This document shows, one piece after another, positions 57,001 through 60,000 of a DNA stretch of 64,000 bases. Where the stretch lies: NCBI RefSeq assembly GCF_016903815.1, contig NZ_CP069973.1; one strand, written 5' to 3'. The DNA comes from Escherichia coli. Its GTDB lineage: Bacteria; Pseudomonadota; Gammaproteobacteria; Enterobacterales; Enterobacteriaceae. A program made the position numbers. The number at the start of each line of letters is the position of its first letter. The stretch's first letter is position 1.

Positions 57001-60000
57001 TTCCAGCCATGACAGGCGCTCACTTAACCAAAGAATACGTTGCCCAACCGAGCGTAACTCGCTCGGTCCACTGAACGAAACGCTATTGCCCAGAGAACGC
57101 CCTTCCCCCAGCCGGTTGATCATGCGCTCGATATTTTTCACCGGACCGATAATCATCCTCGTGAAAAGTAGCACCATCACCAGACTCACCAGAAATAGCA
57201 CCAGCGATTGCCAACCAAAATATTGCCCACGTTCGGCGATTTCACGCTGAAGTTGCTGCCCACGAGAGAACACCACTGTGCGCGTGGCCTGCACCATTTC
57301 GGTATTGGCACTGGCAAAGGCTTCAAGACGCGCGGCGGCGGCGGCATCGGGACCACTGTTGTTACACTGAAGTTGAGCCAGATTGTTCAAATCCTGACGC
57401 AATGCCTGGTAAAGTTTATCGTCTGGCAGTACGCCTGCGTGGGCATCGAGCATTTCGCTGTAACGCTTGCGCTGGCTTTGATAAACCTTCGCAAGCGTAG
57501 GGTCGTCCAGCACGCAATACTGACGGTAACTACGCTCCATCTCCAGCGCCGCGTTGGTCATCGCTTCACTGCGCCGGGCATCAATAAGCGTAGTGCGGTT
57601 AACCAGCGCCGCCTGATCGCTAAGCGCATTCAGGCTTTGCCAGGCTTGCCATGCCAGCACCAACAGGGGCAGCAGAATCAGCAAAAATGCCAGCATTACC
57701 AGTTGTCGTAATGAGCGGGGAAAAACGGGCCAGCGTTTCAAGGTGTTACTCTCGTCAGACGCGAATAGCCTGATGCTAACCGAGGGGAAGTTCAGATACA
57801 ACAAAGCCGGGAATTACCCGGCTTTGTTATGGAATAAGGCGGTGCCTAACTCGACGTTTCGCCCGATGGTTGATATAGCTACGCTGATATCAGAAGTTGG
57901 ACGGCAGGCACCTTGTTGTGCGTCATTCGAATTTTATGTAGCACGTCCCGAAGGGGCTGACATAAGTCGGTGAATGAGCCACTGCTTACTATTATGCAGT
58001 AACTGTGCCAATAAAGAAAATAGTTTGGTAACGTACTGATTATACGCTGCTTTGAGGGATTTATGGCTTCTTCGCTATTTGAATGTAAATCAGCCACTGT
58101 GTCGCTAAAAAGAGACAACTTAAGATAAACTTATTAGATACTATTAAAATCAATCAGTTAAGTGTCGCCAGAAAGCGACACGGTAAACCACCCATTGTCG
58201 TGATTTACAGACACAAAAAAGCTCCCGAAGTTGGGAGCTTATAATAGCGGTTGGTGCTTAATGCCGGATGCGGCTGCAAAACCAATGGGTTGACGGCTTA
58301 TCCCAATTGCTTACGTGCATTGCGGAAAATACGCATCCACGGCCCATCCTCGCCCCAGTTTTCCGGATGCCAGGAGTTGCTGACAGTACGGAAAACACGT
58401 TCCGGGTGCGGCATCATAATGGTGACTCGACCACTTTCAGTCGTAACCGCCGTAATACCGTTCGGTGAACCGTTCGGGTTAGCCGGGTAGGTTTCAGTGA
58501 CTTTACCGAAGTTATCGACATAGCGCAGTGCCACCAGCCCTTTGCTTTCCAGTGCCGCCAGATGCGCCGCATCACGCACTTCCACGCGCCCTTCACCATG
58601 AGATACAGCAATCGGCATTTGCGAGCCCACCATCCCCTGCAACAGCAGAGACGGGCTTTGGGTTACTTCAACCAGGCTGAAACGCGCTTCAAAGCGATCG
58701 GAGGTATTGCGCACAAAACGTGGCCACAACTCACTACCTGGGATCAGTTCGCGCAGATTAGACATCATCTGGCAACCGTTACATACCCCCAGCGCCAGCG
58801 TTTGCGGACGGTGGAAGAAGGTTGCAAACTCATCGCGTACACGGTCATTGAACAGGATAGACTTCGCCCAACCTTCACCGGCACCCAGCACATCACCGTA
58901 GGAGAAACCACCGCACGCGACCAGGGCGTGGAAATCCTCCAGGCCCGTGCGTCCAGCCAGCAGGTCGCTCATATGCACGTCGATAGCATCGAAGCCTGCA
59001 CGGTGGAAAGCTGCCGCCATTTCAACATGCGAGTTCACGCCCTGCTCACGCAGCACAGCAACTTTCGGACGTGCGCCAGTGGCAATATACGGTGCTGCCA
59101 CATCTTCGTTGATATCGAACGACAGTTTTACATTCAGGCCCGGATCGGCGTCGTTTGATTTCGCCTGGTGCTCCTGGTCGGCACACTCCGGGTTGTCACG
59201 CAGGCGCTGCATCTGCCAAGTAGTTTCTGCCCACCAGACACGCAACGTGGTGCGGCTTTCGCTGAATACAGTCTGCCCGTTGGCGGTAATCACAAAACGG
59301 TCACCGGAAACCGCCTGCCCAACATAATGGACGCAATCCGCAAGCCCATGCTGTGCCAGTACCGCTTCAACTGCTTCACGGTCAGCGGCACGAACCTGAA
59401 TCACCGCACCCAGTTCTTCGTTAAACAACGCCGCCAGGCGATCGTCACCCAGAGTGGCGATATCCGCGTCAATGCCGCAATGACCAGCAAAGGCCATTTC
59501 CGCCAGCGTTACCAGCAGGCCGCCATCCGAGCGGTCGTGGTACGCGAGCAGCTTACGCTGTGCAACCAGCGCCTGAATCGCGTCATAGAAGCCTTTCAGT
59601 TGGGCAACGTCGCGTACATCTGCCGGTTTGTCGCCAAGCTGACGATAAACCTGCGCCAGCGCCGTTGCGCCCAGCGCGTTATTGCCTTTGCCCAGATCAA
59701 TCAGCAGTAATGCGTTATCTTCGGTAGAAAGCTGCGGCGTGATGGTGTGACGCACATCTTCCACACGGGCAAATGCAGAAATCACCAGCGACAGCGGCGA
59801 CGTCATTTCGCGCTCTTCGTTACCTTCCTGCCAGCGGGTTTTCATCGACATAGAGTCTTTACCCACCGGGATCGTCAGGCCCAGCGCCGGACAAAGTTCT
59901 TCGCCCACAGCTTTAACGGCTTCATACAGGCCCGCATCTTCACCAGGGTGGCCTGCCGCCGCCATCCAGTTGGCGGAAAGTTTAATGCGTTTGATATCGC

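Follow-up and report, generated by a model that had tools for sequence, protein, structure and literature searches.

On this E. coli chromosome a 556-bp spacer (57742-58297) separates purL from glrK (qseE) within the 64-kb window, i.e., the whole stretch of DNA that was analyzed. The limits proposed for the control region in the earlier note are exactly those of the intergenic spacer, which runs from the end of purL to the TTG start codon of glrK, both genes being encoded on the minus strand. Almost certainly the spacer is glmY of E. coli together with the entire control region described for it in the literature, and nothing in the sequence contradicts this reading. Its identification in the earlier note as a sRNA gene with a sigma54 promoter and GlrR dyads, lying between purL and glrK-qseG-glrR, was correct in locus, coordinates and strand. 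The spacer is 100% identical to that of many clinical isolates, aligns with K-12 at 98% identity over its whole length, and is carried by 5425 of 5426 complete E. coli genomes. All features are listed in Table 1.

Table 1. Features of the glmY locus and its neighbors, in order from purL to glrR (positions in the 64-kb window)
Feature	Position	Strand	Basis
purL (phosphoribosylformylglycinamidine synthase)	58298..62185	-	ORF of 1295 aa; NCBIfam NF003672, 2275 bits (cut-off 783)
purL intrinsic terminator hairpin	58219..58240	-	scan: 8-bp stem with 5 G-C pairs, then TTTTTGTGTCT
Distal GlrR/QseF dyad (ABS1), TGTCGTGATTTACAGACA	58196-58213		exact TGTC-N10-GACA, -213 to -230
Middle GlrR/QseF dyad (ABS2), TGTCGCCAGAAAGCGACA	58163-58180		exact TGTC-N10-GACA, -180 to -197
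Distal IHF-consensus site, AATCAATCAGTTA	58148-58160	+	matches WATCARNNNNTTR; distal to ABS3
Proximal GlrR/QseF dyad (ABS3), TGTCGCTAAAAAGAGACA on + strand	58100-58117		exact TGTC-N10-GACA, -117 to -134
Proximal IHF-consensus site, AATCAGTACGTTA	58029-58041	-	matches WATCARNNNNTTR; between ABS3 and promoter
Sigma54 promoter TGGCAC-N5-CTGCA, TGGCACAGTTACTGCA	58010->57995	-	consensus match; same as K-12
Sigma70 -10 hexamer CATAAT	57996->57991	-	read from sequence; overlaps sigma54 -12
glmY primary transcript	57983->57800	-	184 nt; Rfam RF00128 and K-12 alignment
Processed active GlmY	~57836-57983	-	~148 nt; correspondence to the form in PMC4152352
glmY terminator hairpin	57800..57828	-	12-bp stem AACAAAGCCGGG-UAAUU-CCCGGCUUUGUU; 3' hairpin of fold
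Putative qseEGF (glrK) sigma70 promoter	57766..57801	-	-35 TTGTAT 57801->57796, -10 TAGCAT 57778->57773, start A 57766
glrK/qseE sensor histidine kinase, TTG start	56314..57741	-	472/475 residues identical to K-12 GlrK
qseG outer-membrane lipoprotein, kinase cofactor	55436..56149	-	NCBIfam NF007997, 354.8 bits (cut-off 234)
glrR/qseF sigma54-dependent response regulator (dyad binder)	54112..55446	-	NCBIfam NF011695, 982.3 bits (cut-off 763)

The Rfam covariance model RF00128 (GlmY_tke1 sRNA) matches the minus strand at 57836-57983 over its full length (model positions 1-163 of 163) with 147.1 bits (gathering score 33, E = 1.5e-33). Alignment with the annotated K-12 glmY (b4441) gives 183 of 184 nt identical and sets the ends of the transcript at 57983 (+1) and 57800 (3'); both analyses, which the earlier note had proposed as checks, thus recover GlmY. 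The one difference, at GlmY nt 54 (57930), replaces A with U in a column that varies in the Rfam model. The RNA folds with a minimum free energy of -64.2 kcal/mol (z = -5.53; 0 of 200 shuffles fold equally well) into three stem-loop domains consistent with the Rfam consensus structure. GlmY occurs as 184-nt and 148-nt forms (PMC4152352). The terminator hairpin is unchanged from K-12; a generic terminator scan did not pick it up, its T-run, which lies partly within the stem, falling below threshold. GlmY of K-12 is a decoy that binds RapZ and protects GlmZ (PMC4152352, PMC7073468), and at 99.5% identity the RNA encoded here probably has the same function. At permissive settings, Rfam gave only one further match in the spacer, to rpfG at 17 bits (gathering score 75.9), which was dismissed as chance.

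On the glmY strand, the -24 GG and -12 GC of the sigma54 promoter precede the start site and lie exactly 10 bp apart, at -26/-25 and -14/-13 relative to +1, and the consensus match extends from 12 to 27 nt upstream of the K-12-defined +1. TGGCAC-N5-YTGCW has this single match in 64 kb (0.15 expected), and TGGCA-N7-TGC is present in all 97 syntenic loci of other species that we compared. The promoter scan found both elements at the spacing that the earlier note had given for a promoter of the TGGCAC-N5-TTGCA type at 57991-58010; the spacing stands, but the -12 element reads CTGCA, with C for T before the GC, and so departs from the strict TGGCAC-N5-TTGCW consensus. That range also includes the overlapping CATAAT, which is the -10 of a weak sigma70 promoter overlapping the sigma54 -12 element (PMC3045617, PMC6075780); TGCATAAT is found in 54 of the 97 species. 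In K-12, dependence of glmY on sigma54 and GlrR was demonstrated with glmY'-lacZ fusions (PMC3045617). A generic sigma70 scan of 57600-58400 returned nothing, there being no good -35, a result that fits the published weakness of the glmY sigma70 and qseEGF promoters and neither confirms nor refutes them.

TGTC-N10-GACA occurs three times in the 64-kb window (0.77 expected per 64 kb), and all three matches are within the spacer, for which ~0.007 would be expected; three dyads in a single spacer are far beyond chance. The earlier note had listed two such sites (58100-58117 and 58163-58180), both of which are exact, and had undercounted by one, the third lying at 58196-58213. Three dyad motifs of this kind have been published for K-12 glmY, where ABS1 was reported to be dispensable and ABS2 essential (PMC3045617); the ABS1-3 numbering used here was assigned from the text of that paper and probably corresponds to it. 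ABS3 starts 107 bp from TGGCAC, and the T-run of the purL terminator stops 5 nt before the distal dyad. Two IHF-consensus sites flank ABS3. Since the IHF consensus is common in the window (13 matches), it has little specificity alone; in K-12, two IHF-like sites flank ABS3 and IHF binding was demonstrated (PMC3045617), and the matches found here are likely to be IHF sites 1 and 2 of that study. The control region had been called complete on the strength of the promoter and two dyads; these are all in place, but the third dyad, the two IHF-consensus sites and the sigma70 -10 overlap had been missed.

For a cross-species footprint of glmY, other enterobacterial species supplied 97 syntenic loci, selected by GlmY 3' sequence and flanking genes rather than by promoter sequence. 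A GlmY 3' pattern search of genome contigs gave 120 matches, ~15 of which were excluded as chance matches or glmZ (non-enterobacterial genomes, or flanking genes missing). The gene order purL-glmY-glrK is common to ~100 other enterobacterial species. The alignment has 525 columns per 317 reference positions, with many insertions/deletions between motifs, and its conserved islands coincide exactly with the annotated elements (mean identity 0.67-0.88, vs. 0.34 elsewhere). Half-sites of ABS1 are 90-99% conserved in the 97 species, with ABS2 and ABS3 likewise conserved, and at least two TGT-N12-ACA are present in 93 of 97 loci. Among the 64 species with three measurable dyads, 60 have the start of ABS1 32-33 bp from that of ABS2 (33 bp here), and the distance of 63 bp from ABS2 to ABS3 likewise recurs in 60/64. 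The block containing the distal IHF site has the highest conservation upstream of the promoter (mean identity 0.81), and the proximal site keeps its core ATCAG and GTTA from species to species. An exact IHF consensus is present in 51/97 species at the distal position and 21/97 at the proximal one, the surrounding blocks themselves being conserved. For all of the sequence elements, it is a matter of direct observation that they are present and intact, where they lie, how they are spaced and how they are conserved among species.

PurL, QseG and GlrR exceed curated NCBIfam equivalog cut-offs; purL, the upstream neighbor of glmY, is so annotated in K-12 and in strain 7/2. GlrK has HAMP (PF00672), HisKA (PF00512) and HATPase_c (PF02518) domains by Pfam, while no GlrK-specific NCBIfam model passed. 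In QseG, 231 of 237 residues are identical to K-12; in GlrR the figure is 443 of 444, the NF011695 match covers residues 1-444, and D56 and GAFTGA (residues 201-206) are present. The kinase operon is intact downstream of glmY, as had been proposed, at 97-99% identity to K-12. In K-12, qseEGF is served by a weak sigma70 promoter of its own, which follows glmY and starts transcription 25 bp ahead of qseE (PMC6075780); the hexamers given in Table 1 are our reading of a putative counterpart, and that sequence does not differ from K-12.

The closest characterized system is K-12 glmY (b4441) and its promoter region, studied by the Görke laboratory (ref 22 in PMC3045617; PMC3045617; PMC6075780). The two share the gene order purL-glmY-glrK-qseG-glrR-glnB as well as +1, the -24/-12 elements, CATAAT, three dyads, two IHF-like sites, the terminator and the glrK leader. 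Across the spacer the two sequences differ by 18 substitutions and by a single 1-bp indel. These avoid the defined motifs save for the change at 58155 (C/G), a base of the N4 stretch inside the distal IHF site; none is in any dyad, the -24/-12 elements or CATAAT. Among the changes are G instead of C at -2 (57985) and six between ABS3 and the proximal IHF site. In Salmonella, Citrobacter and Enterobacter (group ii of PMC3045617), glmY shares the sigma54 promoter, sigma70 -10 overlap, dyads, IHF sites and spacings; there glmZ also has a sigma54/GlrR promoter, whereas Escherichia glmZ, which lies outside the window, is sigma70-only (PMC3045617). The group i genera (Yersinia, Serratia, Pectobacterium and Dickeya; PMC3045617) share the three dyads, spacings of 32 and 63 bp, and TGGCA-N7-TGC. 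They differ in having no CATAAT overlap, so that glmY is strictly sigma54-dependent, in a longer glmY-glrK gap and, in a subset of species, in a distance of 122-125 bp from the proximal dyad to the promoter (vs. 104-107 bp).

Protein binding, sigma-factor dependence and the RNA mechanism would carry over to this locus from the literature on the near-identical K-12 sequence. As in K-12, phosphorylated GlrR (QseF) would bind the three TGTC-N10-GACA dyads (-117 to -230), and IHF would bend the DNA between dyads and promoter, with bound GlrR driving open-complex formation by sigma54 RNA polymerase at TGGCAC-N5-CTGCA. A basal level of transcription would come from the weak overlapping sigma70 promoter (-10 CATAAT), sharing its +1 with the sigma54 promoter. 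The transcript of 184 nt is predicted to stop at the hairpin terminator and then be trimmed to ~148 nt, the form that would act as a decoy by sequestering the RNase E adaptor RapZ and so sparing the homologous sRNA GlmZ. Spared GlmZ would activate glmS translation, restoring glucosamine-6-phosphate, and the glrK-qseG-glrR kinase operon directly downstream would be transcribed from its own weak promoter.

The earlier note had described sRNA, promoter and kinase operon as a ‘feed-forward module’, a description that the K-12 literature argues against. A related possibility is that transcription from the glmY promoter passes the terminator into glrK-qseG-glrR, such that the activator boosts its own synthesis. 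The arrangement invites such a reading, with glrK following glmY on one strand after 58 nt and a terminator whose short T-run is under the generic scan threshold, and a glmY-qseE-qseG-qseF operon is reported for Proteus mirabilis in the abstract of PMC8745638. In K-12, however, qseEGF has its own promoter and start site, lacZ fusions gave no autoregulation and RT-PCR gave virtually no read-through from glmY (PMC6075780). Between GlmY nt 55 and the start codon of glrK, both included, the sequence here matches K-12 at every base (100% identity), leaving no cis difference that would alter read-through or autoregulation. Positive autoregulation of the operon is thus improbable, and read-through, even if present, would have that topology and not the topology of a feed-forward loop. 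The documented loop is one of negative feedback, in which RapZ bound by GlmY no longer stimulates QseE/QseF (PMC7073468). We consider it similarly doubtful that the substitutions relative to K-12 (at -2, at GlmY nt 54, in the distal IHF spacer and the six between ABS3 and the proximal IHF site) measurably alter glmY expression, or that, unlike in K-12, this clinical lineage links qseEGF to glmY by terminator read-through and thereby has positive autoregulation. PMC3903284 had been considered as a source for glmY-qseE cotranscription in EHEC; its ‘cotranscribed’ passages concern espJ-espFu and not glmY.

Two further readings have almost no probability. The RNA might not be GlmY but its paralogue GlmZ, or a different RNA of their clan, given that the two are homologues placed together in Rfam clan CL00011 and that a lower-scoring overlapping match from the same clan is suppressed; yet the best clan member is RF00128 GlmY (147 bits, full model), E. 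coli glmZ is without sigma54, GlrR and IHF motifs (PMC3045617), and 183/184 identity to K-12 glmY within the order purL-glmY-glrK refutes identity with GlmZ. A chance origin of the motifs in an AT-rich spacer, or a small protein encoded there, is equally remote: short consensus motifs can occur by chance (as the 13 IHF matches illustrate) and the spacer has two ORFs of at least 60 aa (57879-58118, minus strand, 79 aa; 57743-57973, plus strand, 76 aa), but three dyads stand against ~0.007 expected, both ORFs lack a Pfam match and share sequence with the structured RNA that matches its covariance model strongly, and cross-species conservation limited to motifs, with many indels between them, is incompatible with a conserved reading frame.

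With the glmY locus so identified, its architecture is already known from publications of 2009-2020. The biology of GlmY, GlmZ and RapZ is important and fully published, control of GlmS determining the supply of cell-envelope precursors. The locus accordingly serves here as quality control only: the window is a segment of E. coli chromosome, with coordinates and strand read correctly. RefSeq/PGAP records identical to the spacer have no annotation inside it, and automated annotation leaves this well-characterized regulatory locus hidden. A first-stage reader was able to spot a sigma54/enhancer promoter and a sRNA gene from raw sequence.

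Positions 57742-58297 are the exact spacer between purL and glrK (qseE), both on the minus strand, and are 98% identical to K-12 MG1655 by alignment. Of 5426 complete E. coli genomes, 5425 contain the spacer, once each apart from a few that have it in two places, and one gave no match; many human E. coli isolates carry a 100% identical copy. Judged by these identities, the window is E. coli chromosome and the spacer is the glmY locus. Directly downstream on the same strand lie glrK, qseG and glrR, as the earlier note held. No feature is annotated at the spacer (positions 5001-5556 of L002, a comparison locus) in the 100%-identical RefSeq/PGAP records; among the records compared, only the curated K-12 record annotates glmY.

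Features of the glmY locus, with mean identity to the window across 97 species
Feature	Position	Strand	Evidence or remark	Mean identity
purL	stop codon at 58298	-	1295-aa ORF; NCBIfam NF003672, 2275 bits	
purL terminator hairpin	58219-58240		terminator scan; T-run ends 5 nt before distal dyad	
Distal dyad (putative ABS1)	58196-58213		TGTC-N10-GACA	0.74
Middle dyad (putative ABS2)	58163-58180		TGTC-N10-GACA	0.67
Distal IHF-consensus site	58148-58160	+	exact match	0.81
Proximal dyad (putative ABS3)	58100-58117		TGTC-N10-GACA	0.75
Proximal IHF-consensus site	58029-58041	-	exact match	0.67
sigma54 promoter TGGCACAGTTACTGCA	58010->57995	-	TGGCAC-N5-YTGCW match	0.75 (-24/-12)
sigma70 -10 hexamer CATAAT	57996->57991	-	directly continues -12 element	0.88
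glmY terminator hairpin	57800-57828	-	12-bp stem at RNA 3' end, from fold	
glrK/qseE histidine kinase	TTG start codon at 57741	-	475 aa; 472/475 identical to K-12 GlrK/QseE	
qseG	55436-56149	-	NF007997, 354.8 bits (cut-off 234)	
glrR/qseF	54112-55446	-	NF011695, 982 bits (cut-off 763); 443/444 identical to K-12, D56 and GAFTGA present (alignment)	
glnB		-	last in series after qseG, glrR/qseF	

The GlmY sRNA had been placed between purL and glrK on the minus strand, and both an Rfam covariance search and an alignment to K-12 glmY bear this out. RF00128 (GlmY_tke1) matches 57836-57983 (-) over the whole model and scores 147.1 bits, where the gathering score is 33. Curated K-12 glmY (b4441, 184 nt) aligns with +1 at 57983 and its 3' end at 57800; the two sequences differ only at nt 54 (57930), where the window has U instead of A and the Rfam model has a variable column. 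The 184-nt RNA folds at -64.2 kcal/mol (z = -5.5). Trimming of the 184-nt primary GlmY transcript from the 3' side yields the active form of 148 nt (PMC4152352), which here would span about 57836-57983. GlmZ is ruled out by the identity to K-12 glmY, by the gene order and by the Rfam scores, in which GlmY ranks first within its clan. Small ORFs in the spacer were rejected, having no Pfam match and an inter-motif alignment full of insertions and deletions.

TGGCAC-N5-YTGCW matches only once in the 64-kb window (0.15 expected), with GG at -26/-25 and GC at -14/-13 counted from the K-12-defined start. The sigma54 promoter of the earlier note stands as this match, but its -12 element is CTGCA, not the consensus TTGCA. 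The promoter segment is the K-12 sequence, with the sole exception of G for C at -2. CATAAT is published as the -10 hexamer of a weak sigma70 promoter, which lies across the sigma54 promoter and shares its start site (PMC3045617; PMC6075780). A T-rich tract directly upstream of -24 (TTTTC on the minus strand, 58016-58020) is 60-80% conserved across 97 species; the accessible parts of published glmY promoter descriptions do not mention it.

Two of the dyads had been located correctly, while the distal one was overlooked. All three TGTC-N10-GACA motifs in the window fall inside the spacer (expected, 0.77 per 64 kb and ~0.007 per 556 bp), with start-to-start distances of 33 and 63 bp, or about 3 and 6 helical turns, and with TGGCAC 107 bp downstream of the start of the proximal dyad. 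According to PMC3045617, K-12 carries three of these motifs (ABS1-3), all lying more than 100 bp upstream; only ABS1 is dispensable, the other two being essential, and ABS3 has an IHF-like sequence (WATCARNNNNTTR) on either side. Since the IHF matches here bracket the proximal dyad, we infer that this is ABS3 and the distal dyad ABS1; on this numbering, the two dyads first listed would be the two essential sites. The IHF consensus has 13 matches in the whole window (3.5 expected from shuffles) and is enriched generally in real sequence, so a match by itself is weak evidence of a site. The IHF sites and the sigma70 overlap were left out of what had been called a complete control region.

For the cross-species comparison, one genome per species was searched with a GlmY 3' pattern, which is uninformative about the promoter, and loci were retained if GlrK was encoded downstream or PurL upstream. 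The ~300 nt that precede the predicted glmY start in 97 non-redundant species (including Citrobacter, Enterobacter, Klebsiella, Kluyvera, Cedecea, Serratia, Yersinia, Pectobacterium, Dickeya, Brenneria and Tatumella) were aligned to the window. Mean identity in the unannotated parts was 0.34; dyad half-sites are 90-99% conserved and dyad spacers variable. TGGCA-N7-TGC occurs in 97/97 species; TGT-N12-ACA occurs two or more times in 93/97 and three or more times in 65/97. Of the 64 species with all three dyads measurable, 60 have an ABS1-ABS2 spacing of 32-33 bp and 60 an ABS2-ABS3 spacing of 63 bp. The motif counts and this footprint rule out a chance origin of the motifs. TGCATAAT is present in 54/97 species, in agreement with the sigma54-only and sigma54+sigma70 groups of PMC3045617. 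Escherichia albertii NBRC 107761 differs in having GACG for GACA in all three dyads (TGTC/AGTC-N10-GACG), ~320 nt upstream of glmY, and ~700 bp of additional DNA between purL and glmY; this gap is also enlarged in two other comparison loci (L011, L106) and the Yersinia loci. Four Serratia genomes (L019, L053, L073, L080) have a second GlmY 3'-pattern match without purL/glrK flanks and with one TGTC-N10-GACA ~250 nt upstream, probably glmZ with a GlrR-dependent promoter, as published for the group (PMC3045617).

The observation of the earlier note is confirmed and its identification supported; the whole glmY control architecture is already known, published since 2009-2011 and refined later. While the elements are sequence evidence here, the mechanism comes from experiments in K-12, which is identical at every motif. 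GlrK (QseE), assisted by QseG, would phosphorylate GlrR (QseF) (PMC6075780); GlrR-P would bind the three dyads, IHF would bend the DNA and sigma54 holoenzyme would be activated, with basal expression from the overlapping sigma70 promoter, partly occluded by bound sigma54 (PMC3045617). Processed GlmY would sequester RapZ, an RNase E adaptor, by mimicking GlmZ. The spared GlmZ, with Hfq, would open the glmS ribosome-binding site (PMC4152352). GlcN6P-free RapZ would stimulate QseE/QseF until bound by GlmY, closing a negative feedback loop (PMC7073468).

The sole unsupported interpretive statement was that of a 'feed-forward' circuit: the loop is one of negative feedback, and the K-12 qseEGF (glrK-qseG-glrR) operon is not autoregulated, with glmY read-through virtually absent (PMC6075780). 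The published qseEGF start site, 25 bp upstream of qseE (PMC6075780), is A at 57766 here, with a plausible -10 TAGCAT (57778->57773, -) and a putative -35 TTGTAT (57801->57796, -). Between GlmY nt 55 and the glrK start, the window and K-12 align at 100% identity, so no cis difference points to read-through or autoregulation. Co-transcription of glmY with glrK-qseG-glrR is kept as a rival because it is reported for Proteus mirabilis (PMC8745638); against the separate K-12 start site and this identity, it is very improbable here.

Just 3' of the purL stop, a 10-bp REP-like imperfect palindrome (58264-58273) reads CCGGATGCGG on the plus strand here and on the minus strand in K-12 (alignment), which may reflect inversion of the hairpin core or a matched pair of substitutions; a 1-bp indel relative to K-12 adjoins it. 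Other Rfam matches in the window are, in order, an ALIL pseudoknot, sroE, IS128 with ryfA, and the iscRS stability element (33-149, 7756-7847, 20644-21258 and 28491-28600). The ALIL pseudoknot is an IS3-type frameshift signal, and thus an IS element lies at the left edge of the window.
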